This document shows, piece after piece, positions 21,858 to 59,347 of a stretch of DNA of 64,000 nucleotides. The first letter of the stretch is position 1, and each line of letters begins with the position of its first letter. A model generated the notes under the pieces. It did no database searches. It saw only the letters and a program-made list of their open reading frames with translations, and was not told the DNA's origin. Position numbers and translations under genes: made by a program. This stretch comes from an uncultured Desulfobacteraceae bacterium (lineage in GTDB: Bacteria > Desulfobacterota > Desulfobacteria > Desulfobacterales > UBA11574): contig CAZBOB010000003.1 of the NCBI GenBank assembly GCA_964492995.1, forward strand, positions 7,114 to 71,113, written 5' to 3'.

Positions 21858-23450
21858 TTAAAGAATTCCCTTTGCTTTTAAAAATTCTTCTACCACCTCA
21901 GCTGTTCTTCTTTTTTTCCCATCCACCTCAACGTTCAAACGTTGCATCGTAGCATTGTCAATGAGTCCTCCGGAAAGTGATAGAACATCACCAAGTTTCG
22001 GATGGGTTTTCAGGATTTCTTCTCTGATGACAGGGGCAGCATGGTATGGAGGGAAAAATTTCCGGTCGTCTTTGAGCGGTTTTAAGTTATATGCTGCAAT
22101 ACGACCGTCAGTGGCAAAGGCGCATATCACATCCACTTCCTCTTTGGCCACGGCTTCGTACATGAGTGCAGGATCAAAATCCCGGACCTCACCAAATCGT
22201 AAACCATAGATCTGGCGGAGTCCCGGATAACCATCCGGCCTCTCCGCAAATTCTGCCGTGAAGCCCGCCCGTAGCTCTATAGCAGTATTTCCAAGATCAG
22301 AGATCCGGTTCCATTCGTTCTTCTTTGCATCTGCTTCACGGACCGTAATTGCGTATGTATTGTTAAATCCGAAAGGTTTCAGCCACTGTAGACCAAAGCG
22401 CTCATGGTAAGCTTTGGTGACGTGGCGCAGCGCTTCCTCGGGATCGGAAATCACCGGATGTTTTAGAATCACAGTCAATCCGGTCCCTGTGTACTCGGCA
22501 TAAAGGTCGATCTCTCCATTGACAAGGGCGCCATGACAGATCATTGTACCGCCAAGATTAAAACGACGTTCCACAATTAAATCGGTCTTTGTCTCAATCA
22601 GCTGAGCCATCATCTCCCCGAGGATGAGCTGTTCGGTAAAGTTTTTGGTTGCAATCCTGATAATTCTGTTACCTGTTTTCAATTGTGTTGCTGATTTGGA
22701 AATCCATCCGGGTTTTGTGAAGTAGGTAATGATACTGATCAGAACTAAAGCAACGGGTAACATAAAGGCCAGCCGTCGCATCAACGACTGAACCGATCCT
22801 TTTTTATCCCTTTTTCTTTCCGGTCGAAGCCCCCACTCAAAAGCCCCGATGGAAAAGTCTACAAACAAGGCGAGCAATGCCGCAGGTACGGCACCAAGAA
22901 GAATGAGCTTTGTATTGGCCAACGCCAGACCCCGATTAATGAACTGGCCCAGTCCGCCGGCTCCGATGAACGCCGAAAGGGTGGCGATGCCCACCCCCAC
23001 CACTGCCGCGGTTCGGATGCCGGCCACAATCACCGGCGCGGCCAAAGGTATTCTCACCATCATGAGTTGCTGGTATTCTTGCATACCGATTCCTTTGGCA
23101 GCTTCCATTACCTCAGCGGAGACTTCCTCTAGTCCTGTAAGGGTGTTTCTGGCAATCGGCAGCAACGCATAGAGGGTAAGGGCAATGAGGGCGGGTAGTA
23201 CACCGATTTTTTTGAGCAGTGCCAGCAAAAAGACCAGCATGGCCAGGCTTGGTATGGTCTGAAGGATACCAATGACACCCATCAGTAGCCCTCGCAGATA
23301 GGTGGCTCGAAAAAGTAGAATACCAACAGGGATCCCGATGAACATGGCTCCCAGAGTAGAACATCCTGTCAGCATGAGGTGTTCCCCGGTTCGAAGCCAG
23401 AGTTCCGGCAATCGTTCGACGACATACGCAACCATAGCATCTAAGCTCAT
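21858..23450 (-). CDS. osmoprotectant (glycine betaine/choline type) ABC transporter, permease fused to substrate-binding domain
   Basis: 530-aa ORF. The N-terminal half has the ABC permease EAA-type region (EAAKGIGMQEYQQLMMVRIPLAAPVI). The C-terminal half is OpuC/OpuB-type binding-protein-like (IRIATKNFTEQLILGEMM...DLYAEYTGTG). Confidence 0.85.
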   Translation of the reverse strand: MSLDAMVAYVVERLPELWLRTGEHLMLTGCSTLGAMFIGIPVGILLFRATYLRGLLMGVIGILQTIPSLAMLVFLLALLKKIGVLPALIALTLYALLPIARNTLTGLEEVSAEVMEAAKGIGMQEYQQLMMVRIPLAAPVIVAGIRTAAVVGVGIATLSAFIGAGGLGQFINRGLALANTKLILLGAVPAALLALFVDFSIGAFEWGLRPERKRDKKGSVQSLMRRLAFMLPVALVLISIITYFTKPGWISKSATQLKTGNRIIRIATKNFTEQLILGEMMAQLIETKTDLIVERRFNLGGTMICHGALVNGEIDLYAEYTGTGLTVILKHPVISDPEEALRHVTKAYHERFGLQWLKPFGFNNTYAITVREADAKKNEWNRISDLGNTAIELRAGFTAEFAERPDGYPGLRQIYGLRFGEVRDFDPALMYEAVAKEEVDVICAFATDGRIAAYNLKPLKDDRKFFPPYHAAPVIREEILKTHPKLGDVLSLSGGLIDNATMQRLNVEVDGKKRRTAEVVEEFLKAKGIL

Positions 23451-23749: not shown

Positions 23750-24493
23750 TTAAATGTGTTTACCCTGCCGTTTTATGGTAAATAAATCTTGTACGAATTG
23801 GGTTGCCGGCATGTCCAATATATCCTTTTTCGTTCCGATCTGTTCCAGATGGCCCTCATGCAGAATTGCAATGCGGTCACCAATGAGGAGCGCTTCATGA
23901 AGGTCATGGGTTACAAAGACGATCGTCTTTTTAAGCTGATTTTTCAAGGTTAATAATTGTTGCTGGAGTGCTTCACGGGTGAGGGCATCAAGAGCACCGA
24001 ACGGCTCATCCATGAGTAAATAAGTAGGGTTTGCTGCAAGAGCGCGGGCAACGCCAACCCTTTGCTGCTGACCACCGGAGAGTTCATCGGGAAATCTTTG
24101 AGCAAAACTCTCGGCCGGGAGTCCGACAAGGTCTAATAGTTCCTGCATGCGCTCTCGCCTGGAAGGGATTGACCATCCCAGGAGCCGCGGAACAATTTCA
24201 ACATTCTGTTCAATGGTCATATGGGGGAACAGACCGATTCCCTGAAAAACATAACCTATTTGACGACGCAAATCTACGGGGTTGTGATCCATGATATCCT
24301 TCCCACCGACTTCAATGATTCCTTTGGTAGGTTCGATCAGGCGATTGATCATTTTAAGGGTAGTGGTTTTACCGCATCCTGATGAGCCCAAAAGGACCAG
24401 AGTTTCACCCATGCCCACGCTTAAAGAAAGATCTTTGACCGCATAGGAACGGCCGGCGTCAAATGTTTTAAAAACACGCGTTAGTTTGATCAT
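23750..24493 (-). CDS. osmoprotectant ABC transporter ATP-binding protein
   Basis: Walker A GSSGCGKTT, signature LSGGQQQRV and Walker B LLMDEPF. The start was taken at the internal Met (MIKLTRVFK). Confidence 0.9.
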   Translation of the reverse strand: MIKLTRVFKTFDAGRSYAVKDLSLSVGMGETLVLLGSSGCGKTTTLKMINRLIEPTKGIIEVGGKDIMDHNPVDLRRQIGYVFQGIGLFPHMTIEQNVEIVPRLLGWSIPSRRERMQELLDLVGLPAESFAQRFPDELSGGQQQRVGVARALAANPTYLLMDEPFGALDALTREALQQQLLTLKNQLKKTIVFVTHDLHEALLIGDRIAILHEGHLEQIGTKKDILDMPATQFVQDLFTIKRQGKHI

Positions 24494-24637
24494 GGTTTCT
24501 TTGATGGTTTGATAGAAAGGCCGTCTGGGTATAAATATTAGAAAAAAGTCTTGAGAACATAATTTATATTGATTTATTGATTTGTCTGAAGTAATAAATT
24601 GTTGGAAGTAAAAAGTTTTTAACAGGAACAAAATAAC

Positions 24638-25129
24638 ATGTCAACTGACAGCAGCGGCAATCTAAATACTATAAACAAAATATTTCCGCCTGACCAGACC
24701 AAGCAGATCATCTTTTCGATCCGCAGGCTCATTCAGGCGAGCGAGCTCTATACCAAAGAATTAAACAAAAAATATCAGGTAAGCGCGGCACAGCTCAACT
24801 GCATTTTAACACTTTATGAGTATGGCCCTTTACCGCCATCCAAAATCGCCAATCATATGATGGTTAAGTCCAGCACAGTCACTGGAGTTGTCGACCGCTT
24901 GGAAAAGAAAGGTCTTGCGGAGCGGATGCGAAACTCTCCGGATCGCCGCGTGATTACCATCCAACTCACCGAAGCCGGAAAGAAGTTGGCCCAAAATGCC
25001 CCGCCTCCCATCCAGCAAAAGATCATTGATGGTTTGAAACAAACTGAAAACGCCAAAAAAGAACAGATTGTGCGTTCCCTAAACATGCTGACCGACATGC
25101 TTGACATCCAGGATCTGGAGGTCAAGTAG
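24638..25129 (+). CDS. MarR family transcriptional regulator
   Basis: Winged-helix region LTLYEYGPLPPSKIANHMMVKSSTVTGVVDRLEKKGLAERMRNSPDRRV. It is divergent from the ABC transporter genes. Confidence 0.85.
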   Translation: MSTDSSGNLNTINKIFPPDQTKQIIFSIRRLIQASELYTKELNKKYQVSAAQLNCILTLYEYGPLPPSKIANHMMVKSSTVTGVVDRLEKKGLAERMRNSPDRRVITIQLTEAGKKLAQNAPPPIQQKIIDGLKQTENAKKEQIVRSLNMLTDMLDIQDLEVK

Positions 25130-25282
25130 CACTACGGATTTTATCTTTTTCTCGATCGCTGAGAACCTCAGCAAACAGCCCCCGTCTGGATGTTTTCAAA
25201 AAAAGCCTTTACAAAAGATTTTTATTGCTGTAATAGTTTTTATTAAAATGATTTAAACTAAAATTTTTCTGTGTGAGATATT

Positions 25283-25449
25283 GAGACCTTTAAAAAATGT
25301 TCGAATTTGTTCAAATTCAAGTCGAAGATCCCTGACTTTGAGTGGGGGACACCGAAGATTTTAACCGCTGGAATACATTAAGTATTTCAAGGATTACAAT
25401 CTGAGTCTGACTGAAAAATTGAGCAAAAGGGGATGTTTTTCAACGGTCT
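25283..25449 (+). repeat. nested-hairpin repeat, copy A (degenerate)
   Basis: GAGACCTTTAAAAAATG...GATGTTTTTCAACGGTCT aligns along its whole length with copies B and C. Confidence 0.8.
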
Positions 25450-25494
25450 TATTTCTTTGCAGAAATAACTTTGCTGATACGAGGCGACTTTAAG

Positions 25495-26187
25495 ATGGAA
25501 ATCATACCGATCATAGAAAAAGATGAGTTGGCCAGGCTCTTGGGGGGCGACGAATTCGGCAACATTTCCCGTTCGACCCGCTTAAAAATAGAAAAACTGG
25601 AAACAATATTTGAAAAACTTGTCGAACCTTCTTTGTATCACCAGAACACGGGGATCGATTCAGTGGAAAAGGGGACCGTTCATCTTGAAGAAGGACCGGA
25701 ATTCAAAAGTCCGAAACTTTCAAAAGTGTTAAAAGACTGTGACGATATTATATGTTATATCGCAACGTTAGGTGATGGTGTCGACGGCGAAATCAATCGG
25801 CTCATGGACAAAAAGCACATGGCAGAAGCGTACATCCTGGACGCCATGGCATCTGTGGCTGCCGATAATATGGTGGCAACGTTTCATCGGCGTATGAAGG
25901 ATGAATATAAAAACCAGGGCAAACAGGTGACCCTATGTTTCAGTCCGGGGTATTGTGACTGGGCTATTACTGAACAGAAAAAACTTTTTAAATTATTAGA
26001 CTCACAGGATGTTGATGTTCAACTGAACGATTCATGCCTTATGACTCCCCTCAAGTCTATTTCGGGTGTATTTGGAATACAGTCTGATTATGAAAACGGT
26101 AAGACGCCTTACGATCCTTGCTGGGACTGCAACAAGACGGATTGTCCGGCAAGAAGGGCTCCCAAGAGAGAAAGGAAAAAAACATGA
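25495..26187 (+). CDS. stand-alone protein resembling the MetH (B12-dependent methionine synthase) activation domain
   Basis: TLCFSPGYCDWAITEQKKLFKLLD...LNDSCLMTPLKSISGVFG matches the PGY...Q..LF.LL...M.P..SVSG pattern of the SAM-binding reactivation domain. Its stop overlaps the next start (ATGA). Confidence 0.65.
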   Translation: MEIIPIIEKDELARLLGGDEFGNISRSTRLKIEKLETIFEKLVEPSLYHQNTGIDSVEKGTVHLEEGPEFKSPKLSKVLKDCDDIICYIATLGDGVDGEINRLMDKKHMAEAYILDAMASVAADNMVATFHRRMKDEYKNQGKQVTLCFSPGYCDWAITEQKKLFKLLDSQDVDVQLNDSCLMTPLKSISGVFGIQSDYENGKTPYDPCWDCNKTDCPARRAPKRERKKT

Positions 26188-27644
26188 AGATCCGAAGGGG
26201 ACTCAACGGAGGCCATTATAAGCCGTTAAGCGACAAGGATGTCGAAAAAATACATCAAACAAGCCTTAAGATCTTTTCAGAAGTAGGCGTACAGGTGAAT
26301 TTCCCGGAGGCGCTGGAGCTTTTTAAAAAAGCAGGAGCCAGCATCAATGATTCAACCAAAATAGCCAAATTCAACCCAAGGCTGGTTATGGAACTGATCA
26401 AACCGGCCCCTTCTGTTGTTCATCTTTGTGGCAGAGAAGACAGCGGCGAACTGGACTGCGAAATCGGCGGTAACAAGGTTTATATGGGAACAGGAGGTAC
26501 CGCCCTTAATGTTCAAGATCCCGGGGAAAGAACCGCACGACGGTCCAAATTAGAAGACATCAAGAACATGGCACGGCTGGTGGATGCTCTGGACAATGTA
26601 CATTTTTATATGCTCAATGTGTATCCCAATGATCTGCCGGTTGAAAGGGTGGATGTGAACCGGTTCGGTGCTGCCCTTAACAATACCCGCAAGCATGTAA
26701 TGGGCGGGGTTTATACCCTGGAAGGGGTTAGAAATGTGATTAAGATGGCGGAACTTATCGCAGGTTCTCCGGAAAAACTCAGAAAGCGCCCGTTTATCTC
26801 CATGGTAACCTGTAATATCAGCCCGTTTATGCTTGATGAAAGCTATGGTCAGTTAGCCATAGAGGTTGCAAGGCAAGGTATACCCGTGGTTGTACCGGTA
26901 GAGCCCCTTTGCGGTGCGACTGCGCCTATTACACTGGCCGGCAATCTGGTCGTGCAAAACGTGGACACCCTTATCGGGGTTATGCTCACCCAATTGGTCA
27001 ATCCGGGCACTCCGGTGTTATACGGATGCATATCTTCGATTACTGATCTTCGCGATATGAAATACCTGTCCGGCGCCATTGAAATGGGTCTGATGAATGC
27101 GGCTTCGGCTCAGATGGCAAATTTCTATAACCTCCCCTTATATTCCACCGCCGGCATGTCTGATGCCAAAATCAACGATTCACAGTCCGGTTATGAATCG
27201 GCATTGACCGGTTTGATGGTGGCTCTGGCCGGCGGTAACTTTATTCATGATGCCGCCGGGTTCCTGGAATTTTGTATGACGGCTTCATATGATAAGCTTG
27301 TAATAGATAACGAAATTATCGGTATGGTAATGCGTGCTGTCGAAGGAATCACGGTTGATGAAGAATCCCTGGCATTCGAAGTTTTAAAAAAAGCCGGGCC
27401 GGGGGGTCATTTTGTTTCAAACCGGCACACTCGAAAATTCATGCGCACCGAGCAGTACCAGCCCCAACTCAGCGACAGGAATAACAGGGAAATTTGGGAG
27501 ACAAAAGGAGCAAAATCCCTCCGGGTTCGTGCTTCAGAGAAAGCAAGGGAAATTTTAGAACGACCTGAAACTCCGGTGCTTTCATCTGATATGCGCGATA
27601 TCATCCGAAAAGAAATTCCCGGGCTGAAAGCCGGTATCATGTAA
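26184..27644 (+). CDS. MttB-superfamily (trimethylamine methyltransferase family) protein, non-pyrrolysine, paralog 1
   Basis: 486-aa uninterrupted ORF, colinear with the three other paralogs (shared blocks such as TRKHVMGG, GIPV, TAPITLAG, DNEIIGM, GPGGHF). Confidence 0.85.
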   Translation: MKIRRGLNGGHYKPLSDKDVEKIHQTSLKIFSEVGVQVNFPEALELFKKAGASINDSTKIAKFNPRLVMELIKPAPSVVHLCGREDSGELDCEIGGNKVYMGTGGTALNVQDPGERTARRSKLEDIKNMARLVDALDNVHFYMLNVYPNDLPVERVDVNRFGAALNNTRKHVMGGVYTLEGVRNVIKMAELIAGSPEKLRKRPFISMVTCNISPFMLDESYGQLAIEVARQGIPVVVPVEPLCGATAPITLAGNLVVQNVDTLIGVMLTQLVNPGTPVLYGCISSITDLRDMKYLSGAIEMGLMNAASAQMANFYNLPLYSTAGMSDAKINDSQSGYESALTGLMVALAGGNFIHDAAGFLEFCMTASYDKLVIDNEIIGMVMRAVEGITVDEESLAFEVLKKAGPGGHFVSNRHTRKFMRTEQYQPQLSDRNNREIWETKGAKSLRVRASEKAREILERPETPVLSSDMRDIIRKEIPGLKAGIM

Positions 27645-27972
27645 TTAAACGCCTTCGGGAATTCAATAACTTATTCCAACTTAAGGTAACTTCTCAATAA
27701 GTTCTGGTGTTTAAATAGTGATATTGAGCCGCCAACTAATAATAAAATGTAAAATGTCTGGAACTCGAATATAAGTGATCCTAAAGAAAAAACAGATGCC
27801 AATTATTTAATATCAAGTGCTTAAACACAACATCATTTATATAAAAGATGAATGATCTTAACCGCTGTTTTTTCTTAAGGCTCACTAACATTCTCAAACA
27901 GCCAGACCTTTTACATTTTATCACCAGTTGGCCCCATAATTTATTGAGATATTACAACTTAAGTTTCCAATG

Positions 27973-28201
27973 CAGAAATGAGCAATTTTTTGCAAGGTCA
28001 AGGACAATTCTGCAGGATAGCGGAATTGGACGGCTGAATAGCCGCCCGTAAGGGCGAGGGGCATGGACGCCCCGAGTCAAATCAAGGAATTACGCGTCCC
28101 GCCCCGAGGCGGGAACAAGTAATTCCGCAGATTGACCCCAGAGAAATAGGCTCCGCATTTCACGGGGCAGGCGCAGAGATTGCGGAAAAGGGCCATTTCT
28201 G
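27973..28201 (+). repeat. nested-hairpin repeat, copy D (expanded by GC-rich hairpin insertions)
   Basis: Outer arms are CAGAAATG/CATTTCTG and inner arms are GCAAT/ATTGC. The 5' part (AATGAGCAATTTTTTGCAAGGTCAAGGA) and 3' part (ATTGCGGAAAAGGGCCATTTCT) align with copies B and C. Confidence 0.65.
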
Positions 28202-28224
28202 GACGGAAACGGAGGTATTCATAT

Positions 28225-29019
28225 ATGATCATCATCGGGGAAAAAATTAACGCAACCCTTTCTCCTGTAAAATCCATAATGTTGAATCGAGAGAAAGAAA
28301 ACCTTATCGAGCTGGCAAAAAAACAGGCGGAATCCGGCGCAAACTTTATTGATGTAAATGTGGGTACCGGTGTGGGATCTCTTGAAGATGAAATTGAATC
28401 TATCCAATGGGCGGTTGAAAGTATTCAAGAACAAATCAAAACACCCCTTTGCATTGACAGTGCAGATCCAAAGGTGATGGAAACCGGGCTTAAAATTCTG
28501 AATAACAAACCTGCCATGATCAATTCTGCCAAAGCTGAGAAGTCTAACCTGGAAGCGGTAGTGCCCCTTGCCGCCGAACATGATTCTTTTCTAATTGCAC
28601 TGGCAATGGATGAAAGCGGTATTCCAAAAACGGTGGAAGGAAGGCTCCGGTGTTGCGATACAATCCTCGGCGCCTGTGAAAAATATGGGGTTTCTATTCA
28701 AAATCTTTATATTGATCCTTTGGTCATGCCGATCAGTACGGATATAAATTCGGGAATGGTGACGCTAAAAACGTTAACCGCCATTAAAGAAAAATTTCCC
28801 GGTGCCAGAACCGTGACAGGACTTTCAAACGTATCCTACGGCTTACCCGAACGGGGCAGACTTAATGTTGCCTACCTGCACATGTGTATATCTGCGGGGC
28901 TCGATGCCGCCATTATCGATCCCCTGGATCAAACGCTGATGGCATCGGTAAAAACAGGAGAAGTATTGGCCGGGAAAGATCGACATTGCCGCCGGTACAT
29001 GCGTGCTTTCCGAAAGTAA
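28225..29019 (+). CDS. methyltetrahydrofolate:corrinoid methyltransferase-like protein (MeTr/MtgA/MtrH family), copy 1
   Basis: MIIIGEKINA... start with a GGAGG Shine-Dalgarno. It has pterin-binding barrel blocks (FIDVNVG, LCIDS, MINS, YIDPLV, GLSNVSYGLP). It is a paralog of 56275-57075. Confidence 0.82.
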   Translation: MIIIGEKINATLSPVKSIMLNREKENLIELAKKQAESGANFIDVNVGTGVGSLEDEIESIQWAVESIQEQIKTPLCIDSADPKVMETGLKILNNKPAMINSAKAEKSNLEAVVPLAAEHDSFLIALAMDESGIPKTVEGRLRCCDTILGACEKYGVSIQNLYIDPLVMPISTDINSGMVTLKTLTAIKEKFPGARTVTGLSNVSYGLPERGRLNVAYLHMCISAGLDAAIIDPLDQTLMASVKTGEVLAGKDRHCRRYMRAFRK

Positions 29020-29039
29020 AGAATCTATAGGAGGATATA

Positions 29040-30575
29040 GTGATTGAATCATACAGACAAGGTGTATTGGTCAAACCTTATGAACGGTTGAATCGGGATC
29101 AGGTAAAATGGCTTGATCAAGCGTCATTAAACATGCTGTCCAACCCGGGTATCTGGTGTTATAACGAGCGGGCGGCCAAGCTTTTCAAAGACCATGGCGC
29201 CCAAGTCCGGGAAGAAAGCGATTCGAACGCGAAATGGTGGCGGGTAAGTTTTCCGGGCGGACTCATCAAAGAAGCCGTTGCAAAGGCACCTTCCCGGCTT
29301 GTTTTAGGCGCAAGAAAACCGGAAAATCGCCTGTTTATCGATGCTGAAATTCCAAGGGCTTATTTTGGATCAGGATCTGAAGCAAATATCTGGCTCGATG
29401 CGGAAATGGAGGTTTTTGTCAGTGAAAAAAACAACTCTGTCAAAGTAAAAGTGCCCCGATACACAGAGCGTCGTGGCAGCACTGCCTTGTTAAGTCGTGC
29501 TGCAAAGCTCTGCGAAAGATTGGAGCATCTCGATTTTTTCATCCGGCCATTAAACATACAGGATCCCGAGATCACATCAGATAACCATGATGTGAACAAA
29601 TTTTTTGCCAGCCTCAATAACATCACCAAACATGTCCAGGCCGGTTTGACCAGCCTGGCGCGTTTCGAAGATGTTGTAACCATGGCCGAGATTATTGCAG
29701 GAGGTAAAAAGGCCTTAAGAGACAATCCGATTATTTCCTTTATTGCATGCGTATTTAAAAGTCCGCTTCAAATCGTGGATGACACGGCAGAAAAGGTATT
29801 TGCTATTGTTGAAGCAGGGCTTCCGTTGGTTATTTCTTCTTCACCTCAGGGAGGATCATCGGCTCCTATCCAGGAAGCAGGCATGGTTGCACAGATTAAT
29901 GCCGAAATTCTGGCCGGCATTACGCTGACGCAACTGATCAAAGAAGGGGCGCCGGTCCTATATGGCAGCGTTCCGGTCAGAGCACGTCTGGATGATCTTC
30001 ATGACCTTTACGGCTGCCCGGAATTCAATCAGTATAATATCGACTGCGTTCAATTAGCCCGCTACTATAAGATACCGTGCTATTCAACCGCCGGTGTGGG
30101 CGATGCCCATGTGCCGGGAATGCAGGCCATGTTTGAGAAACTGTTTACCCATCTTTATATGGCAATGAGCGGAGCACACTATATCCATTACGCGTTCGGG
30201 CTTTTGGATCGGACCAATTGTTTTTGCCCGCTTCAGGCTGTTCTCGACAATGAACAGATTGGAAAAATCAAGCATTGTCTTAGAGAGCCCAAGATCAGTC
30301 CAACAGAGATTGATGACACGCTCAATATGGTAAAAAAAGTCATGGCCTCAAGCCATCGACTTTTTGCCCGTCATGCTCGCAAGGCCATGCACAGCGGGGA
30401 TGTCTCCAATCCATATCAGTTTGAAACCAAGGACATGGAAGACAAAGTCATCGAAAATGCGCTCGAGTACATGGCTCGACTGGAAAGCGAACCGGCGCCT
30501 CACCTGGACTCAGATGTGGTGGAACACATATATGATAAGGTTCCGGGCCTTCTGCCGGGCTTAAAATCAAATTAA
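29040..30575 (+). CDS. MttB-superfamily protein, non-pyrrolysine, paralog 2
   Basis: 511-aa ORF with a GTG start behind AGGAGG. It has no internal stop and carries MttB family blocks (ITKHVQAG, SAPIQEAG, DNEQIG). Confidence 0.82.
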   Translation: MIESYRQGVLVKPYERLNRDQVKWLDQASLNMLSNPGIWCYNERAAKLFKDHGAQVREESDSNAKWWRVSFPGGLIKEAVAKAPSRLVLGARKPENRLFIDAEIPRAYFGSGSEANIWLDAEMEVFVSEKNNSVKVKVPRYTERRGSTALLSRAAKLCERLEHLDFFIRPLNIQDPEITSDNHDVNKFFASLNNITKHVQAGLTSLARFEDVVTMAEIIAGGKKALRDNPIISFIACVFKSPLQIVDDTAEKVFAIVEAGLPLVISSSPQGGSSAPIQEAGMVAQINAEILAGITLTQLIKEGAPVLYGSVPVRARLDDLHDLYGCPEFNQYNIDCVQLARYYKIPCYSTAGVGDAHVPGMQAMFEKLFTHLYMAMSGAHYIHYAFGLLDRTNCFCPLQAVLDNEQIGKIKHCLREPKISPTEIDDTLNMVKKVMASSHRLFARHARKAMHSGDVSNPYQFETKDMEDKVIENALEYMARLESEPAPHLDSDVVEHIYDKVPGLLPGLKSN

Positions 30576-30618
30576 TACCAATTTGCAATAACAACAACCA
30601 AGAGTGGAGGAGTGGGTG

Positions 30619-31299
30619 ATGAATCCAAGTGAACTTATAGAGAAAATCGCATTTAATGTCATTCAGGGAAGAGTGGAAGCTGAAGACGAAGGCTTTGATC
30701 CGGGACTGGAAGGTCAGCCGGGAGTCACTGAGCTGGTGAATGAGGCATTGAATCAACATATAGATCCAAAGAAGATATTGATAGAATCATTAACGGAATC
30801 CATGGAAATAGTGGGGGAAAAATTTGAGCAAAATGAGTATCTGATCCCGGACATGCTGGCTTCTGCCGAATGTGTGGGTGTGGCCACGGATTTGCTGGCG
30901 CCTTATCTTATTAAAGCGGGTGTGGAGAGCAAGGGCAAATTTGTAATTGCCACGGTGAAGGGCGACCTTCACGACATCGGGAAAAACATTGTTGCCATTA
31001 TGTTAAAAGGCGCAGGCTACGAAATCATCGATCTAAAATCTGATGTGAGTACGGATCGCATCGTGGATGCGGTTAAAGAGAGTGAGGCTCCGTTTTTAGG
31101 GCTTTCGGCGCTTTTAACCACAACCATGCGCAATATGGAAGATGTGATCCGGGAACTGGAAAAACAAGGACTTCGAAATAAGGTTAAGGTTCTTATTGGC
31201 GGCGCCCCGACCTCCAAGGAATTTGCGGCACAAATCGGGGCGGATGCTTATTGCAAAGATGCGTTTCAGGCCCTTGAGGTCGTTAAAAGTTTTGAATAG
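30619..31299 (+). CDS. corrinoid (B12-binding) protein, copy 1
   Basis: Carries B12-binding signatures GDLHDIGKNIV (DxHxxG), SALLTTTM and GGAP. Confidence 0.88.
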   Translation: MNPSELIEKIAFNVIQGRVEAEDEGFDPGLEGQPGVTELVNEALNQHIDPKKILIESLTESMEIVGEKFEQNEYLIPDMLASAECVGVATDLLAPYLIKAGVESKGKFVIATVKGDLHDIGKNIVAIMLKGAGYEIIDLKSDVSTDRIVDAVKESEAPFLGLSALLTTTMRNMEDVIRELEKQGLRNKVKVLIGGAPTSKEFAAQIGADAYCKDAFQALEVVKSFE

Positions 31300-31307
31300 G
31301 AGTAATT

Positions 31308-32576
31308 ATGAAACAAAAGGGAGAAAAAAAGGCGTATACACAGGCACACAGCACGGGAAAATATGAAAAAGCAAGCGGACTGACCGGAAAATATGACAAT
31401 GTTCGAAGGTTTTGGGAAGATCAGAACACCGCTATTTTTCTGCGCCCTGCACTGAACAATTTGGTGGAACGGAAAAAAAGAAACCTCGAAAGAATACGTA
31501 TTCTTGACCTGGGTTGCGGCAGCGCCGACGGATACGACCTGTTAATGAATGTAACAACCAAAGATCCCGGTCTTTTCGAATTCATTACCGCTGCCATTAC
31601 ACAGGACATGCTTCAAGAATATGCGGGTGTCGATATTAACCCCGATCTTCTTCAACAGGCCGAAGAATATATCGGCCAGCTTCCCAAAACACGGTTTATT
31701 CAAGCGGACCTTTCAAACGGCCTGACGCCTGAGATAACCGAAAGTCCTCCTTTTGATGTATATTTTACCTCCTACGGTACCTTCTCACACTTTTATGATC
31801 ATCAGTCTGTGAAAATTATCGCCGATATTTGCAGGCATGCACCGGAGCGGGCGATTTTTATGGGAGACTGGCTGGGTCGTTATACCTGTGAATGGCAGGA
31901 TCTGTGGCATCATCCCGCTGACGAAGAATATTTCATGGATTATCGAATTTCCTATATTTATCCTGAAGAAGAACGGGATCAAATGGAGATTTCATCCTTT
32001 CCGTTACGTCTGATAACAAAAGATGAAATTATGAAAATTATTAACCAGGCGTCACAGGAATCAGGGATTGCGATTGAGCCGATCAAATTTTTTGATCGTT
32101 CCATATACATCGGTCGCCACATGGATACCAGGGACTACAACGCTAATTGCCCAAAGTTGCGGTTTCCGGTGAATTCACTCTTTGAGGGATATGTTCGTAC
32201 AGATCTTGAAAGCCTTTTGGTCGACTATGTGCCCCGGCCGGGGTTTGATCATCTGAACAATTTTTTTGAAATGTTTTTCATGTGCTGCAACACCTTGGTA
32301 AACCATACGATTTCACTGCTCAGCAATTATGATACAGAAGATGAAAAACTAAATGATGTTCCGAAAATTATGCCCTATTATCCGGACTCTCTTAAAGAAG
32401 CCATGGAAGCCATGCGCAGAGTCATTGAAGGGGTTGGATGGGTGCCCTGGGGCGATGTTCGGGCCAATGTCATAGAGCCTCACCTGGGCTTCTCTCTTCG
32501 CAAGCTCGAAACGGATCTTCAGCCCGGCACAGGATTTGGACACGGAATAGTGGGAATCTTCGAAATACGCAAATAA
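31308..32576 (+). CDS. class I SAM-dependent methyltransferase, 422 aa, with a large uncharacterised C-terminal part
   Basis: Motif I ILDLGCGSADGYDL plus downstream Rossmann-fold blocks (GVDINPD, FDVYFTSYGTFSH). It begins 9 nt after the corrinoid protein gene. Confidence 0.65.
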   Translation: MKQKGEKKAYTQAHSTGKYEKASGLTGKYDNVRRFWEDQNTAIFLRPALNNLVERKKRNLERIRILDLGCGSADGYDLLMNVTTKDPGLFEFITAAITQDMLQEYAGVDINPDLLQQAEEYIGQLPKTRFIQADLSNGLTPEITESPPFDVYFTSYGTFSHFYDHQSVKIIADICRHAPERAIFMGDWLGRYTCEWQDLWHHPADEEYFMDYRISYIYPEEERDQMEISSFPLRLITKDEIMKIINQASQESGIAIEPIKFFDRSIYIGRHMDTRDYNANCPKLRFPVNSLFEGYVRTDLESLLVDYVPRPGFDHLNNFFEMFFMCCNTLVNHTISLLSNYDTEDEKLNDVPKIMPYYPDSLKEAMEAMRRVIEGVGWVPWGDVRANVIEPHLGFSLRKLETDLQPGTGFGHGIVGIFEIRK

Positions 32577-32646
32577 TGCAAAAGGAAGGCTAAACTCATA
32601 TACGCCTTTGTCGTCGCTATTAAAAATATAACCTTTGGAGAATACT

Positions 32647-33816
32647 ATGAGCAAAGAGCAGTTCTTTTTTACATCCGAATCCGTGACAGAAGGGCATCCC
32701 GATAAAGTCGCCGATGCCATATCGGATTCAATTTTAGATGCAATGATTGCAGAGGATAAAAACAGCAGGGTTGCCTGTGAGACCCTGGTAACAACCGGTT
32801 TGGTCTTGGTCGCCGGTGAAATCACAACCGACTGTTATGTCGATATTCCTGAACTGGTTCGAGAAACCATACGAGATATCGGTTACCATTCATCTCAAAT
32901 GGGATTTGACTGGCAAACCTGCTCGGTTATTACAAGTATTGACCAACAATCAGCAGATATCGCTCAGGGAGTCAATGTTGACGAGGGACTTTTCAAGGAG
33001 CAGGGGGCGGGTGATCAAGGTTTGATGTTTGGCTATGCCTGTGATGAAACCCCGGAACTCATGCCAATGTCTATTATATTTGCCCACAAATTAACCCGCC
33101 GTCTGGCAACGGTTCGAAAGAACGGTGCTCTGGATTTCCTGAGACCTGATGGTAAATCCCAGGTAACCATCGAATACGAGAACGGAACTCCGAAACGGAT
33201 TGATACGATAATCGTCTCTGCCCAGCACAAACCGGAAGTTTCGTATGAGGACCTAAAAGAAGCGGTGATTGAGGAAGTGGTCAAAAAAATTATCCCACAG
33301 GATATGGTGGATGGAGATACCAGATATTTAATTAATCCAACCGGTCGGTTTGTGATCGGCGGCCCCATGGGAGATTGTGGTCTTACCGGACGGAAAATTA
33401 TTGTCGACACCTATGGTGGTCAGGGCCGTCACGGTGGGGGGTGCTTTTCCGGAAAGGATCCTTCAAAGGTAGATCGCAGCGCTTCGTATATGGCGAGACA
33501 TGTAGCCAAAAATATCGTGTCTGCCGGTCTTGCTAAAAAATGCGAAGTACAAATCGCCTATGCCATTGGTGTTGCAGAACCTGTATCTGTGATGGTCAAC
33601 CTTATAGGAACCGGCGTGGTTCCTGAGCATAAAGTGAGAAAAAGCATCTTGGAAACCTTCGATTTACGGCCCGCCGCCATCATTAAATATCTTGATCTGC
33701 TACGGCCAATATATCGCAAAACTTCGGTCTACGGGCACTTCGGCCGCAGTGAACCCGAATTCACCTGGGAAAAAACCTATATGGCGGAAACGCTAAGAGA
33801 GAAGACGAGGTTGTAA
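32647..33816 (+). CDS. metK: S-adenosylmethionine synthase
   Basis: Full-length ORF with [46 protein letters not shown] and [16 protein letters not shown]. The start was taken at ATG 32647. Confidence 0.96.
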
Positions 33817-33865
33817 TTCTATTAGTGCTTAATCCATCTATTTTATTAAGGAGATTGGGTTTAAA

Positions 33866-35389
33866 ATGAGTGGTTTTGCTGTCGTTTACGATCAACCAAA
33901 TACTCTGGTTCTGGAAGAAATGTTTAAAAGGATTGGTCATCGAGGTCCATATTTGTCAGGGAAATTTGAGGGCCAACGGATCTTAATGGCCCAGAACTAT
34001 CTGAGAGCCGACTGTCCTGAGGCGCATCCGGAAAACGATCCATTGCCTGTCACCAATCCAGGGGGTAAAAACAGTTCCATCTGTTACGACGGCCAAATGG
34101 GCAACTCCAAAGATCTATGCAATACTCATGGGATCCCGAACGGTGCTTTCAAAGAAGAGCGGCTGATTCTACACCTATTCAAAAAGTATGATCATAAGAT
34201 GTTCCAGCATTTGGATGATGCTATCTTTGCATTCGTGATTTCCGATGGAGAATACCTATTTGCAGCCAGAGATCTTTTAGGCATCAAAACCCTTTTTTAT
34301 GGAAGAAAGAATGGGGCGCTTTATCTGTCTTCCGAACTTAAAAGTCTGATAGGAATCACCGACGATGTATATGAATTTCCGCCGGGACATTACATGGACA
34401 GCACGGGCACGCTATTCCGGTTTGCCGAACTTCCGAAAAGTCAGCCTGAAATCTTACATAGCGATCCCAACGAGATGGCGGAAACCATCAGAGACATTAT
34501 CCGGCGCAGTTTCCAAAACCGTGTGAACTTTGAAGCGCCCACAGGAAGCCTTCTCAGTGGCGGAATAGACAGCAGTGTTATTGCCTGGCTGGCCGGTAAT
34601 GCCTACAGGGAAAAATTTGGAAAGGATGAGCGCTTGAAGACATTTGCCCTGGGTGTAGGAGAAAGCGAAGACATTACATGCGCCCGTTTAATGGCCGACT
34701 ATATCCGCTCCAACCACCATGAATTGATTGTAAACCTTGATCAAATTCTGGCGGTACTGCCCCAAGTAATTTGGAGCCTGGAATCCTTTGATCCTTCTTT
34801 GGTGAGAAGCTCTGTGTCGAATTATCTCATCTCTAAATATGCAAGAGAACAAGGAATAGAGGTCCTGCTTTCCGGAGAAGGCGGTGATGAAGTCTTTTGC
34901 GGGTATTTATATCTTAAAGACTTTCCAGCTGAAGAATTATTCGCACAACAAATGAAATGTATCGGCTTTTTACATAATAATGCGTCATTACGCCTTGACC
35001 GAATGAATCTATGCAATTCCGTCCGGGTTGTTACCCCCTTGATATCCGGAGAACTGCTCAAATATGCCATGGGCATTCCTGCTGAATATAAGCAAAGACC
35101 GGAAGGAAATCAAAAAATCGAAAAATGGATTTTCAGAAAGGCTTATGAAAACGTACTGCCCAAAGAGATTGTATGGCGGCTCAAACAGGAATTTTCTCAA
35201 GGATCCGGGTCTGCTGATGTGCTTCCCAAATATTTTGATGAGACGGTTAAAGATGAAGAGTTAAAAGAAGCTCAGGGCAGTTATCCGATGGTCCGGAGCA
35301 AAGAGGAGCTGTATTATTTTAAAATCTTCATAGAACATTTTGGCAGAGGACGAGCAGTAGAAACGGTTGGCCAGTGGATTCGATTATAA
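33866..35389 (+). CDS. asparagine synthetase B-like ATP-dependent amidoligase lacking the N-terminal Cys nucleophile
   Basis: 507-aa ORF with the PP-loop SGGIDSS and AsnB-type blocks (LLSGEGGDE, LRLDRMN). The N-terminus reads MSGF instead of MCG. Confidence 0.8.
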   Translation: MSGFAVVYDQPNTLVLEEMFKRIGHRGPYLSGKFEGQRILMAQNYLRADCPEAHPENDPLPVTNPGGKNSSICYDGQMGNSKDLCNTHGIPNGAFKEERLILHLFKKYDHKMFQHLDDAIFAFVISDGEYLFAARDLLGIKTLFYGRKNGALYLSSELKSLIGITDDVYEFPPGHYMDSTGTLFRFAELPKSQPEILHSDPNEMAETIRDIIRRSFQNRVNFEAPTGSLLSGGIDSSVIAWLAGNAYREKFGKDERLKTFALGVGESEDITCARLMADYIRSNHHELIVNLDQILAVLPQVIWSLESFDPSLVRSSVSNYLISKYAREQGIEVLLSGEGGDEVFCGYLYLKDFPAEELFAQQMKCIGFLHNNASLRLDRMNLCNSVRVVTPLISGELLKYAMGIPAEYKQRPEGNQKIEKWIFRKAYENVLPKEIVWRLKQEFSQGSGSADVLPKYFDETVKDEELKEAQGSYPMVRSKEELYYFKIFIEHFGRGRAVETVGQWIRL

Positions 35390-35557: not shown

Positions 35558-36079
35558 ATGAACCTGTTTGATTTAGCAATCATAGCGATTTTATGCTTTT
35601 GTCTGATAAGAGGTGTTTTCATAGGAATCATCAGGGGATTGTTTTCAATCACAGGGGTATTGGTCGGCTTCTTTGGAGCTTCAGCATTTTACATGGAAGT
35701 TTCAAAATCCTTATTATATTGGATGCCGGATGCTTCGCATGTCAATCTATTGAGTTTTCTCAGTATTTTTTTTGGATTCTTTTTTACGATCAGTATACTG
35801 GGAATGATTGTCAATGGCTTACTTAAAATCGATTTTTTGAGTTGGGTAAAACGCACGTTAGGTGCTGTCATCGGCATCATCAAAGGGGTATTGTTTGTTT
35901 CTGTTTTGTTGCTCACTTTCACCGCGTTTCTCCCTAAGGGCACACCTATTATTAAAAACTCCCTATTTTCTTCCTATTTTACCTTGGTGTCCGAGAAGAT
36001 GGCCAGGATTGTTTCCAAAGATATGAGACATAAGTATGTAGCAAAAATAGGAGAGTATAAAAAATCCTGGAAAAATTAA
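35558..36079 (+). CDS. CvpA family membrane protein
   Basis: Starts MNLFDLAIIAILCFCLIRGVFIGIIRG and has four hydrophobic segments. Confidence 0.7.
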   Translation: MNLFDLAIIAILCFCLIRGVFIGIIRGLFSITGVLVGFFGASAFYMEVSKSLLYWMPDASHVNLLSFLSIFFGFFFTISILGMIVNGLLKIDFLSWVKRTLGAVIGIIKGVLFVSVLLLTFTAFLPKGTPIIKNSLFSSYFTLVSEKMARIVSKDMRHKYVAKIGEYKKSWKN

Positions 36080-36105
36080 AAATAAAGCCCCATCCTTTTG
36101 GGTGT

Positions 36106-36456
36106 ATGAAAGAGGACAAAATGAAATTGGGAAGTGAATACAGACTGCGTACAATTAGTCAAAATACAACACTTAATGTTGGCGAATTGATCGACGACTG
36201 CCTGAATTTTTTACACACATTAGTACTTGGCCAAGATGCCGCAAAAAAGTTAGCAAAAACGGAACATAAATTGCGTGAAATTGAAAAGATAAAAGACAAC
36301 GATAAGATATATAAGTGCCAAAAAGAGATACTTTTCCAGGATATTTTCGATATTCTGGAAGATATTGCACCGGAGGGATGTTATTTTGGCACCCATCCTG
36401 GAGATTTCGGGCTCATCGGTTTTTGGGACAAAGACTTATTTTCTGTTACACACTAA
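36106..36456 (+). CDS. hypothetical protein
   Basis: 116-aa ORF with no recognisable motif. Confidence 0.35.
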   Translation: MKEDKMKLGSEYRLRTISQNTTLNVGELIDDCLNFLHTLVLGQDAAKKLAKTEHKLREIEKIKDNDKIYKCQKEILFQDIFDILEDIAPEGCYFGTHPGDFGLIGFWDKDLFSVTH

Positions 36457-40580: not shown

Positions 40581-41420
40581 ATGAAATACGACTACAATCA
40601 CAAAATAAAGGATGTTGTGCTTGTTACGGATGACAAAGAACGAATTAAATCAAAAATGACGAGTTTTATTCTTAAGTTATTGCGCACCAATGGACTCAAT
40701 CCCATTGCAACCAAACATTTTGATGGTGACCAAGTACGAGAAAACAAGGAGTTCTATTTCCATAGAGACAGAGAAATCTTTAAGAAAAGTTTCGAATACT
40801 TAACCGAACCTGTCTCTATTAAAACCCTTCTAAACTTCAGCAGGCAAAATCCTGAACTCCAAGAAGCTTTAAAACAAGACCCATTATCCCTTATGGAAAT
40901 ACTATGGCAAGAGTATCAAAAAAGATTTCATCAACCGGACCGCTTGCATGAAATCGTGGAGCACTATGAAGTTGGTCAAAAATTTGCCGCAAAATTTCCT
41001 GATGCACATGTTTTAACTGTTTTGTTTTTTCACAAGGTAATTTCTCCCAAATTGCAAAGCAATGGAATATTAAATTACCATTCTGTTGGAAGGGGGTTCT
41101 ATGGATATGGCTCATGCAAGCCGATTGAACCGGAAATCGGGTCCCCCGGAAGGGCAAAGATCTTGATATCTGCCAACGCAGTATCGAATTGAGCTTTCGA
41201 AAAGAAAAAAGCATTTGCCCGGCGGGTATTCTTTCATGAATATTGGGGTCATGCCATCAATGGACTTGACGACCATTTTAATATACCGATGAACTGGTGT
41301 GTAATGTCGGTTCCGCCATCTCTGAATGCCTTTGTTAAAAAAGCGCAGAATGATAGGAAACCGGTTTTTTGTAAAAAATGTTTAGAAAAAATGGACTATT
41401 TACCGGAAATTTCCACATAA
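40581..41420 (+). pseudogene. HExxH-motif protein gene interrupted by an in-frame TGA at 41190-41192
   Basis: The ORF 40581-41192 continues in the same frame after the TGA for 76 more codons, including FFHEYWGHAINGL (HExxH) and a CKKC pair. Confidence 0.4.
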
Positions 41421-41428
41421 ATGATAAT

Positions 41429-42565
41429 ATGCACATGATGGATAAGGGATTTAATAATCATAAAACGATTACACCGAAAAAGGGCCGGATATTTATGCTC
41501 GTTTTTCTGTCCACACTTGTTTTTTTAATATGTTCGGCACGTTCCAAAGAAATTAAGGATAATAACATAGATTTAGCTATTCATACTCAGCTAAGAAACG
41601 ATAAAATTGTACCCGTAGATATGATTGATGTGATAACCGAAGAAGGTATTGTTACAATGACAGGAACGGTCAACAATTTATTGTCCCGTCAACATGCGGC
41701 CAAGATTGCTCGAACCGTTAGAGGTGTAAGGTCTGTAATTAATAGAATTAAAGTGCGATCCTTTGAGCGCACAGACGAACAAATTCGTTTGGATGTTGAA
41801 AAGGCCTTGAAGGACGATCCTGTTGCGGACATATATAATCTATCCGTAACTGTTCAAAATGGGGTTGTAAAGTTAAACGGCCGCTTAGACTCGTGGATTG
41901 AAGAAGAGTTGTGTCTGCAGATCGCCAAAGGAGTGAAAGGGGTCAGAAAAGCCATTCCAAATTTTAAGGTGCTCATGAAGGCCCGGCGATCAGACAGGGA
42001 AATTGTGTCTGAAATTAAGCGCAGGCTGGCATGGGATGTGTGGGTTGATGAAGACATGATCAGTGTGAAGGTAAGGAAAGGCGATGTTTTTTTGAGCGGA
42101 ATGATAGGTAGTTTAGATGAGAAAATAAAGGCTTATCGAGATGCTTGGATTGCGGGTGTTCAATCCGTCACGGACGATGACTTATTCGTGGATGGGTCAA
42201 AACATAATAATATGCGCCGCCGGATAGCATATACCCTAATATCGGATGAAAAAATAAGAAATGCGATAAAAGATGCTTTTTCCTACGACCCCAGAGTTTC
42301 ACCGTTTAATTTGAATGTTTCTGTAAACATCGGTTCGGTTACGCTTACAGGCTATGTGCAAAACTTGAAAGCCAAGCGTGCCGCTGAGCAGGATGCAAAA
42401 AACACCGTCGGCGTTTGGCACGTCAAAAATCACTTAAAAGTGAGACCAGACATTAGACCAAATAAAAATCCTATGTCCTCTGTTGATACTAAAACCCTAA
42501 AACTTTCCGCCCTTTATAAGCAGGGAATGAGCAATGAAAATTCAACATTTAGAAAGTATTTTTGA
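41429..42565 (+). CDS. secreted protein with multiple BON domains (OsmY-like)
   Basis: Signal-like segment IFMLVFLSTLVFLICSA, then four repeats of the BON pattern (e.g. VTMTGTVNNLLSRQHAAKIARTVRGVRSVINRIKV). The longest ORF starts at 41378. Confidence 0.75.
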   Translation: MHMMDKGFNNHKTITPKKGRIFMLVFLSTLVFLICSARSKEIKDNNIDLAIHTQLRNDKIVPVDMIDVITEEGIVTMTGTVNNLLSRQHAAKIARTVRGVRSVINRIKVRSFERTDEQIRLDVEKALKDDPVADIYNLSVTVQNGVVKLNGRLDSWIEEELCLQIAKGVKGVRKAIPNFKVLMKARRSDREIVSEIKRRLAWDVWVDEDMISVKVRKGDVFLSGMIGSLDEKIKAYRDAWIAGVQSVTDDDLFVDGSKHNNMRRRIAYTLISDEKIRNAIKDAFSYDPRVSPFNLNVSVNIGSVTLTGYVQNLKAKRAAEQDAKNTVGVWHVKNHLKVRPDIRPNKNPMSSVDTKTLKLSALYKQGMSNENSTFRKYF

Positions 42566-57075: not shown

Positions 57076-57168
57076 GACTTTGAGTAATTTTTTAATACGT
57101 TTTGAGAAATTAAAAATAACAAACTTGCCCACTAACAATAAAATGCAACATGCTATCAAAAGGGGGAG

Positions 57169-57813: not shown

Positions 57814-57843
57814 ACCCCAAACCATTCAAACAAGGAGTAACGC

Positions 57844-59292: not shown

Positions 59293-59347
59293 CTTCAATG
59301 TATGGTATTTCTTTGTAAATCAGCAGCATCGGAGAGTTGAATTCATC

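Follow-up and report, generated by a model that had tools for sequence, protein, structure and literature searches.

A conserved operon of Desulfobacterota joins an S-adenosylmethionine-dependent methyltransferase and a Cys-less AsnB homologue to a complete chain of corrinoid methyl transfer

Corrinoid-dependent methyltransferases of the MttB superfamily are known from several systems that resemble the operon described here, which lies at positions 25495-35389 of a 64,000-nucleotide (nt) stretch (the window) of contig CAZBOB010000003.1 from an uncultured Desulfobacteraceae bacterium. In the MtgB/MtgC/MtgA system of Desulfitobacterium hafniense (2qne/9yce), the glycine betaine site of MtgB is formed by Y97 and F356, which make cation-pi contacts, and by R312 and H348, which bind the carboxylate (PMC13080624); the characterised members, whose substrates are acidic quaternary amines, have R312 in common (PMC13080624). 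The window operon shares the three-component logic of that system, i.e. an MttB-superfamily enzyme, a corrinoid protein with the DxHxxG motif and a pterin-binding methylcorrinoid:tetrahydrofolate (THF) methyltransferase, and a RACo/RamA-type activator is encoded in the window. The choline pathway of Eubacterium limosum (MthK/MthB/MthC/MthA) was the first case of an MttB-family system with an ATP-using substrate modifier (PMC12155760); our operon likewise encodes an MttB-family system together with an ATP-using enzyme predicted to modify the compound. In Ruegeria pomeroyi and Phaeobacter inhibens, a split methionine synthase/MtgBCD system relies on RamA and DUF1638 for reactivation (PMC12478193), and like our operon it is built of separate cobalamin-binding, pterin-binding and MttB-type modules around one common corrinoid protein, possibly with a bidirectional flow of methyl groups. 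Finally, pyrrolysine (Pyl)-dependent MttB (7xcl; TIGR02369) has a Tyr at the position of MtgB R312, as does MttB1, the first of the two MttB paralogues of the operon.

Genes in the window were called from an open reading frame (ORF) listing together with hidden Markov model scans (Pfam, NCBIfam), which confirmed the family assignments made in an earlier note on this DNA (the original prediction). That note had counted nine genes in the operon; eight are present, all on the + strand, and the 27645-28224 gap, where a ninth was sought, contains no + strand ORF of at least 80 amino acids (aa). The operon opens with a MetH-activation-like protein of 230 aa (MetHact; 25495-26187; PF02965 Met_synt_B12-like, 32.5 bits against a gathering cut-off of 25, the match spanning only profile positions 121-246 of 273), whose stop codon overlaps the start of the next gene by ATGA. 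This next gene, MttB1 (26184-27644; MTTB PF06253, E 2.5e-109), is followed after 580 nt by a methyl-tetrahydrofolate:corrinoid methyltransferase (MeTr/MtgA-like, hereafter MeTr; 28225-29019; Pterin_bind E 1.2e-26, NF005719 291.6 bits, cut-off 259), by MttB2, a divergent MttB paralogue without pyrrolysine (29040-30575; MTTB E 5.8e-58), and by an MtgC/MttC-like corrinoid protein (30604-31299; B12-binding PF02310 and B12-binding_2 PF02607), which scores 180.5 bits with TIGR02370, under the cut-off of 215.3, and carries a DLHDIG (DxHxxG) motif in its translation. The operon ends with a class I S-adenosylmethionine (SAM)-dependent methyltransferase of 422 aa (MT; 31308-32576; weak Methyltransf_25 matches only and no NCBIfam match), the SAM synthetase gene metK (32647-33816; TIGR01034 602.9 bits, cut-off 309.4, all three S-AdoMet_synt Pfam domains) and an AsnB-like protein of 507 aa with the N-terminus MSGF (S-type; 33866-35389; Asn_synthase E 1.5e-58 and GATase_7). 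From 28225 onward the genes are separated by only 8-70 nt, as had been claimed.

Comparison with other genomes reveals a conserved operon that couples a complete corrinoid methyl-transfer chain to the MT/AsnB pair. We scanned one genome per species for relatives of MT and found members of its family in 319 species-level genomes, nearly all of them Desulfobacterota; the 80 best loci, where MT is 63-96% identical to that of the window, were examined further by tblastn with the window proteins, each count below referring to the loci with enough flanking sequence. The 120 best matches of a protein search are 69-93% identical to MT, and those named by organism come from Desulfobacterota. The conserved order is MetHact / MttB1 / MeTr / MttB2 / corrinoid protein / MT / AsnB-like. 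The corrinoid protein gene lies directly upstream of MT in 74 of 75 loci; all five upstream genes are present in the same order in 44 of 48 loci, with MetHact first in the block; and an AsnB homologue is found within 3.6 kb downstream of MT in 57 of 63 loci, 51 of these homologues being the Cys-less orthologue. These counts bear out the proposal that MT and the AsnB-like protein are a genuine extension of the MttB/corrinoid/MeTr module. The flanking genes are wholly different among Desulfoferrobacter suflitae, Desulfobacca and the clade of the window, which argues that the block moves as a unit. Upstream of it, a MarR gene is present in 28 of 40 relatives and a component of an Opu importer in 20 of 40.

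A second scan, of metagenomes and seeded with the MT domain of the fusion type (see below), allowed us to distinguish three architectures. Type I has the gene order of the window. Type II reads MarR-B1-B2-MT-ATPase-permease/substrate-binding protein-AsnB(Cys)-AsnB(Cys-less, 'MAG...') and has no MetHact gene. Type III consists of AsnB-MT, fused or adjacent, with an importer and without MttB. At two genomic loci (L065 11273-15235 and L084 6793-10744) the place of AsnB is taken by three genes, the first for a protein that passes the ProA model (glutamate-5-semialdehyde dehydrogenase), the second for a carboxylate-amine ligase of the GCS2 type and the third for a DUF362 protein in which two 4Fe-4S motifs occur, after which a sodium:solute symporter or an Opu-type ATP-binding cassette (ABC) importer follows; at another locus (L099) a DUF362-like gene precedes the MT gene.

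The MT family is small: an exhaustive profile search of 1.84 billion cluster representatives identified 324 of them at E <=1e-3. An AlphaFold2 (AF2) model based on an alignment of 66 sequences reached pLDDT 95 and pTM 0.93, and it replaced a first model, from 10 close sequences, that had reached only pLDDT 52 and was discarded. Foldseek comparison of the model with the PDB recovered a generic class I Rossmann core only (TMq <=0.37), and about 230 extra residues have no solved counterpart; similarity to 5h02 and 2o57 (TMq 0.32-0.35) was no better than to unrelated methyltransferases. A sequence search of the PDB with the MT profile gave marginal matches only, and the models of glycine/sarcosine and sarcosine/dimethylglycine N-methyltransferases (GSMT/SDMT) did not match MT.

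The association of MT with AsnB extends beyond the operon. AsnB and MT are fused in two proteins, P0156 (934 aa) and P0160 (901 aa), which share only 47% identity in their MT domains; both adjoin genes for an ATPase of the short ProV type and for a permease/OpuAC fusion, and MttB and corrinoid genes are lacking in their vicinity. P0166 directly follows an OpuAC gene. Adjacent AsnB-MT pairs in the opposite gene order occur at L088 and L095, importer genes lie between MT and AsnB at some loci (L134, L139), and in 10 metagenomic loci the MT gene is followed, at a distance of less than 250 nt, by an ATPase gene. A different fusion, P0188 (L089 8001-9794), joins a universal stress protein (Usp) to MT. 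The fusions and the proximity to importers in the absence of MttB argue that MT and AsnB form a functional pair tied to a quaternary-amine-type compound, and in evolutionary terms the pair is a module of its own, with a link to an OpuB/C-type importer. The original prediction had offered two explanations for the accessory genes, SAM-dependent reactivation of the corrinoid or modification of a small molecule by methylation and amide formation; it is the second that fits best, given the existence of AsnB-MT fusion proteins. We favour, at a probability of roughly 0.45, the tentative reading that the operon metabolises (makes or turns over) a quaternary-amine-type, probably non-acidic, amide-bearing methylated solute, most likely in a stress or osmotic context.

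What the AsnB-like protein could contribute is suggested by its active site. Its ORF has no in-frame start upstream of MSGF, therefore the protein has no Cys2. In 54 orthologues of the S-type all glutaminase residues are replaced: C1 by S or A, and R49Y, N74D, E76Q and D98E without exception. The PP-loop SGGxDS, E348, K429 and K449 are kept in 54/54, and D279, S346-G-E348, D351, E352 and R387 are kept as well. Judged by the residues kept and lost, adenylation should be possible for this protein and glutamine hydrolysis should not. The S-type scores below the AsnB models (NF006949 368.8 bits, cut-off 499; TIGR01536 250.1, cut-off 267.1), and together with the loss of the Cys and the glutamine-binding residues these scores rule out a glutamine-hydrolysing asparagine synthase B. 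It also carries K376C and D384A; these positions, which have a role in aspartate binding, are K/R and D in the solved enzymes of E. coli and human. A C-type paralogue with an intact glutaminase set (N-terminus MCGI) is found instead of or beside the S-type in 12 genomic loci, and also in fusions; it passes the NCBI model of asparagine synthase B (574 bits, cut-off 499) and has mostly S (8/12) and N at the K/R376 and D384 positions. In type II loci, Cys-less 'MAG' paralogues recur beside Cys-containing ones.

Could the AsnB-like protein simply make asparagine from ammonia, as a housekeeping enzyme next to an equally housekeeping metK and an unrelated MT, the three being held together by inherited synteny and sharing no pathway? 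E. coli AsnB in which Cys1 is replaced is reported to keep ammonia-dependent activity, the C-type paralogue passes the AsnB equivalog model, and metK scores as a normal MetK (603 bits) in a position that is not conserved, all of which would suit such an explanation. We regard it as highly improbable, because the link between MT and AsnB outlasts changes of gene order, fusion and the loss of every MttB gene elsewhere, because the S-type, with K376C and D384A, fails the AsnB model (369 bits), and because the spacers measure only tens of nucleotides. For AsnB and MT, the comparative data largely refute it.

The case of metK is different. It had been regarded as part of an MT-metK-asnB triad, and here neighbourhood comparison speaks against the original prediction: metK occurs within 5 kb downstream of MT in only 4 of 63 relatives. 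In two contigs 94-95% identical to the window (L163, L121), the stop codon of MT and the start of AsnB are 22 nt apart with no metK between them, and this spacer keeps the GGAGATT ribosome-binding region as in the window, where metK is flanked by 70 nt upstream and 49 nt downstream. It follows that metK was inserted into the operon spacer, and it is a late, lineage-specific addition to the 22-nt space between MT and AsnB. At L018, an 83-nt MT-AsnB spacer holds a relic of 24 metK residues (7399-7470, residues 156-179, 67% identical, E 0.001), therefore the presence of metK in the operon is older than the lineage of the window and has since been lost again. Elsewhere metK is placed after the AsnB gene or genes (L047, L077, L034 and D. 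suflitae), and in D. suflitae it is followed by ahcY. Such repeated and independent placement of metK (window, L018 relic, L047, L077, D. suflitae/L034), together with ahcY, suggests that the need for SAM is stoichiometric, i.e. that MT consumes it stoichiometrically. Chance adjacency is possible for metK and largely excluded for MT and AsnB.

Both MttB1 and MttB2 are uninterrupted ORFs with the MttB-superfamily fold and without pyrrolysine. We aligned them by MAFFT to the MtgB sequence (9yce/2qne). At MtgB positions 97/312/348/356, MttB1 has G(T)/Y/D/C and MttB2 has S/Y/Y/T, while the Pyl position is occupied by Met and Val, respectively; these signatures are the same in orthologues from type I and type II loci, and that of MttB2 is conserved in distant lineages. 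As all four binding residues are missing in both proteins, neither can be considered the glycine betaine enzyme MtgB. With TIGR02369 (cut-off 525), MttB1 scores 469.3 bits and MttB2 251.7 bits, and MttB1 is nearly as close to Pyl-containing MttB (7xcl, 270 bits) as to MtgB (275 bits). The codon of MttB1 that aligns with Pyl is ATG (Met325, 27156-27158), and there is no in-frame UAG. Exactly at this codon begins a match to Rfam RF02510 (PYLIS_3, mttB; 27156-27255, +; 54.5 bits, gathering score 38). We rejected it as a working pyrrolysine signal, given the ATG in place of UAG, the uninterrupted ORF and the fact that most base pairs of the model are unformed; it looks like homology of the coding sequence, a trace of descent from a Pyl-type mttB. 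MttB1 and MttB2 are thus neither MtgB nor Pyl-MttB, and the two co-inherited subfamilies, with their distinctive non-carboxylate pocket, are new. Tyr in place of R312 and Asp or Tyr in place of H348, combined with an amide-forming partner, suggest a substrate without a free carboxylate where betaines carry one, so that the common substrate is probably non-acidic at this position.

The same pockets, which lack the carboxylate-binding Arg and His, would also suit a purely catabolic operon, in which the AsnB-like protein and/or MT condition an imported compound by turning it into a form that MttB1 and MttB2 can demethylate: AsnB would convert a carboxylate to a carboxamide, MT would convert a tertiary amine or thioether to a quaternary amine or sulfonium, and the methyl groups, handed on by the corrinoid protein and MeTr, would end up as methyl-THF, to be oxidised or assimilated. 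MttB1 is close to the Pyl-dependent trimethylamine methyltransferases, yet with Met at the Pyl position it would need a pre-activated (quaternary) donor. MthK, which acts before MthB, provides a precedent for such conditioning (PMC12155760). The importer and MarR genes in or next to the operon agree with catabolism, the type II layout resembles a catabolic operon, and an embedded importer is better explained in this way than by the synthesis or turnover of a solute. Set against this are the energetics, since ATP (AMP-forming) plus one SAM spent for one or two methyl groups is, by known pathway costs, a poor bargain in a sulfate reducer. Moreover, sets of MT, AsnB and importer genes exist without MttB or corrinoid genes nearby, therefore the pair should have a purpose of its own, and that metK and ahcY were recruited more than once suggests bulk methylation rather than catabolism. 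On balance we find the catabolic explanation rather unlikely, though it is the main rival to our reading.

MetHact is the first protein of the block. At least 95% of its 47 orthologues have SPGYCDW and the C-terminal motif PCxxCxxxxC..RR, and two further Cys residues, in YCDW and SC, are conserved as well. The Cys motif suggests a metal or Fe-S site that would be foreign to the MetH activation domain itself. The SAM motif of MetH is RxxxGY; in MetHact its Arg is absent, and SPGY is invariant in the 47 orthologues.

The other corrinoid genes of the window form a second methyltransferase cluster (56275-63646, +) with MeTr, a corrinoid protein, two MttB paralogues, DUF1638 and RACo (Pfam). RACo (61712-63646) is complete, with Fer2, linker, middle and C-terminal domains, so that an ATP-dependent activator (RamA/RACo) is present inside the window though outside the operon, and this cluster is the likely source of ATP-dependent reactivation of the corrinoid. 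Its MttB paralogues are non-Pyl and also lack the MtgB binding residues. The cluster directly follows the AsnB gene at several loci (L003/L012, L009, L017, L052, L060, L066, L069); in the window, about 20 kb are inserted between the two.

These genes bear on the other explanation of the original prediction, according to which MetHact, MT and metK would re-methylate the cob(II)/cob(I) form of the corrinoid protein with SAM, replacing or supplementing RamA/RACo. That MetHact opens the operon in 44 of 48 relatives, that it keeps SPGY and a CxxCxxxxC motif which could bind a metal or Fe-S cluster, that no RamA gene lies inside the operon and that metK is embedded in it in the window would all be understandable. 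So would P0175, in which a B12-binding domain reads in frame straight into MT; the product is, however, truncated and comes from a short contig, and it may be a true fusion or result from a lost stop codon between genes 8 nt apart, which would give the same protein. Yet MT occurs with AsnB and an importer at loci without corrinoid protein, MetHact or MttB genes, type II operons carry MT and no MetHact gene, RACo and DUF1638 are encoded in the window and, in several relatives, immediately behind the operon, and metK is absent from 59 of 63 relatives. Reactivation would in any case be served by catalytic amounts of SAM, and it leaves AsnB without a role. We consider this explanation very unlikely for the operon as a whole: SAM-dependent reactivation may still be the task of MetHact, and the corrinoid-free MT/AsnB/importer loci and the downstream RACo/DUF1638 weaken it for MT.

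Upstream of the operon, the window encodes an ABC importer on the - strand, composed of a permease fused to an OpuAC-type binding domain (21858-23450; OpuB/OpuC-like; Pfam BPD_transp_1 and OpuAC) and a short-form ATPase of the ProV family (23750-24505; TIGR01186 proV 310.7 bits), and a MarR-family regulator (24638-25129, +; Pfam MarR E 2.3e-17). The regulator had been described as divergent; it lies on the strand of the operon and only the importer genes are divergent. Among solved proteins, the binding domain is closest to OpuCC, OpuBC and choline/acetylcholine binders derived from Thermoanaerobacter OpuBC, a group of OpuBC/OpuCC-type binders of choline, carnitine and betaine. A permease-binding protein fusion of the same type adjoins MT/AsnB genes in unrelated loci. 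The type of the importer and the MttB family together point to a quaternary-amine-type common substrate. As for the betaine-type substrate suggested in the original prediction, the OpuB/OpuC-like binding domain agrees with it, while the absence of all four glycine betaine residues, Arg included, from both MttB proteins does not.

Several neighbours are associated with stress. The stretch between the AsnB-like gene and the second cluster encodes a protein with four BON domains (41378-42565) and an MscS channel (47444-48502). Two genes of sucrose synthesis are found there as well, one for a sucrose-phosphate synthase/phosphatase fusion (51297-53498), the other for a sucrose synthase (53495-55951), and the - strand carries the gene of a PAS histidine kinase (44601-45695). 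The D. suflitae locus is flanked by MscS/BON and TrkAH genes. Taken with the Usp-MT fusion, these neighbours in D. suflitae (MscS/BON/Trk) and in the window (sucrose synthesis, MscS, BON) suggest that the compound is stress-related.

If the operon serves to make or turn over an amide-bearing methylated solute, its proteins might work together as follows. The OpuB/C-type ABC importer, possibly under control of the MarR regulator, would take up the compound or a precursor. MT and the AsnB-type adenylating amide synthetase would act on the same molecule, the former adding a methyl group and the latter forming a carboxamide. MttB1 and MttB2 would pass its N-methyl groups to and from the corrinoid protein in the cob(I)amide state, and the pterin-binding methyltransferase would link the methyl-corrinoid to THF, hence to the one-carbon (C1; Wood-Ljungdahl) pool. 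MetHact, with its Cys motif, and the downstream RACo/DUF1638 would keep the corrinoid active, and metK would be a recent, lineage-specific recruit that feeds SAM to MT. The identity of the substrate, the direction of the flux (synthesis, demethylation or both) and the roles of MetHact and MarR are what we infer from these data.

Several considerations weigh against the synthesis or turnover of such a solute. None of the known compatible solutes has an obvious need for both enzymes. Genes for synthesis and demethylation in one operon would be a futile cycle unless separately regulated, and importer genes within an operon are more often a mark of catabolism. The evidence for an osmotic context comes from few loci and is anecdotal. 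The C-type AsnB, present in loci and fusions, passes the asparagine synthase B model and so could simply make asparagine. Foldseek did not tell apart whether MT is an N-, O-, S- or C-methyltransferase, and a scan of the window for promoters and terminators found sites no more numerous than in shuffled sequence. The same scan showed no terminator between the + strand genes of the operon, although, in view of that background, it is uninformative about co-transcription.

A hybrid route, which we judge distinctly unlikely, would reverse the corrinoid chain: MttB1 and MttB2, supplied via methyl-THF, MeTr and the corrinoid protein, would act as methylating enzymes in these Wood-Ljungdahl organisms; an amino-acid amide produced by the AsnB-type enzymes would receive its first N-methyl groups from them, and MT would only quaternise it. 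The product, e.g. an asparagine- or aspartate-derived betaine amide, could be a new compatible solute that is re-imported by the OpuB/C-type transporter and demethylated on osmotic downshift. SAM would then be used for the thermodynamically demanding quaternisation only, and this would account for metK and ahcY having been recruited repeatedly.

The 580-nt gap between MttB1 and MeTr (27645-28224, unstranded) is a lineage-specific insertion. It is filled with repeats, as had been noted, and contains nested inverted repeats of 270 nt (27686-27955) that resemble a miniature inverted-repeat transposable element, followed by a GC-rich structured segment of 235 nt (~27990-28224) that folds better than shuffled sequences (z = -5.5). 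An inverted-repeat arm (27731-27761) does not recur within the window, a 31-nt stretch of the GC-rich segment is absent from every fetched locus, and neither the repeat nor the GC-rich segment matches an Rfam family. In most relatives only 10-60 nt separate MttB1 from MeTr, and the two ends of the gap alone align to them; a conserved regulatory region was rejected on these grounds. No SAM or cobalamin riboswitch was detected at the gathering threshold before metK, in the operon leader or in the gap, nor even at E up to 1 within 25100-28300. Apart from PYLIS_3, the sole Rfam match in the window is a tRNA gene (1303-1374, +; RF00005, 68.9 bits). Downstream of the AsnB-like gene, a membrane protein of the CvpA (colicin V production) family and a 116-aa ORF without family match (35558-36456) are kept in close relatives (L003/L004, L014, L047), outside the widely conserved block.

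Full-text literature searches on the gene combination or the organisms returned no description of this arrangement, in agreement with the claim that it had not been reported before. This result and the failure of the proteins to qualify as MtgB, Pyl-MttB or glutamine-dependent AsnB lead us to consider it a new form of corrinoid system: it is of the corrinoid-dependent methylamine/quaternary-amine kind, with two new MttB subfamilies and a new accessory enzyme pair. The cluster is found in hundreds of species of sediment sulfate reducers, and in other lineages; its carriers include the cultured Desulfoferrobacter suflitae and Desulfatitalea alkaliphila as well as partners of alkane- and methane-oxidising archaea (metagenome-assembled genomes labelled Eth-SRB1, Eth-SRB2 and SeepSRB2), and an unrecognised methylated nitrogen compound may be a common osmolyte or C1 currency in anoxic sediments. 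The gene context, i.e. the new MT family, the Cys-less and normal AsnB paralogues and the OpuB/C-type importer, can be used directly for identification of the substrate, and the natural AsnB-MT fusion proteins are convenient for biochemistry.

Compared with MtgB/MtgC/MtgA, the window operon has two MttB paralogues, neither with any of the glycine-betaine-binding residues, and adds MetHact, the SAM-dependent MT of a new family and the Cys-less AsnB, while its activator is encoded outside the operon. Unlike Pyl-dependent MttB, MttB1 has no in-frame UAG, scores below the cut-off of 525 and leaves most PYLIS pairs unformed. The second cluster of the window, with DUF1638 and RACo, can be compared to RamA and DUF1638 of the Ruegeria system; our operon differs from the latter in having no homocysteine-binding module, in its MT and AsnB partners and in a stand-alone MetHact, which is not part of the Ruegeria system as described.

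The accessory enzymes have relatives in other pathways. Beta-lactam synthetase and CarA (1jgt, 1q15) also have the AsnB fold; in them, too, the glutaminase nucleophile is gone and the adenylation site serves another amide-forming reaction, and they are the next-best solved relatives of the AsnB-like protein after true AsnB. The AsnB-like protein is nearer to true AsnB (180 bits, versus 73 and 36 for beta-lactam synthetase and CarA), and in contrast to these two enzymes it keeps E348, R387 and K449 and often co-occurs with a glutaminase-competent paralogue. The GSMT/SDMT clusters of betaine synthesis have in common with our system the SAM-dependent methylation of a small molecule and the context of osmotic stress. 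They often carry metK and ahcY, as do the window (metK) and D. suflitae (metK/ahcY). MT itself matches neither the GSMT nor the SDMT model and shares only the generic Rossmann core with 5h02 and 2o57. In comparison with the Mth pathway, the accessory enzymes of our operon are an adenylating amide synthetase and a SAM-dependent methyltransferase, not a kinase, the modification would remove an acidic group rather than add one, and the pair also exists without an MttB gene. If our reading is true, this would be the second case of substrate-modifying enzymes teamed with an MttB enzyme, by a different chemistry.

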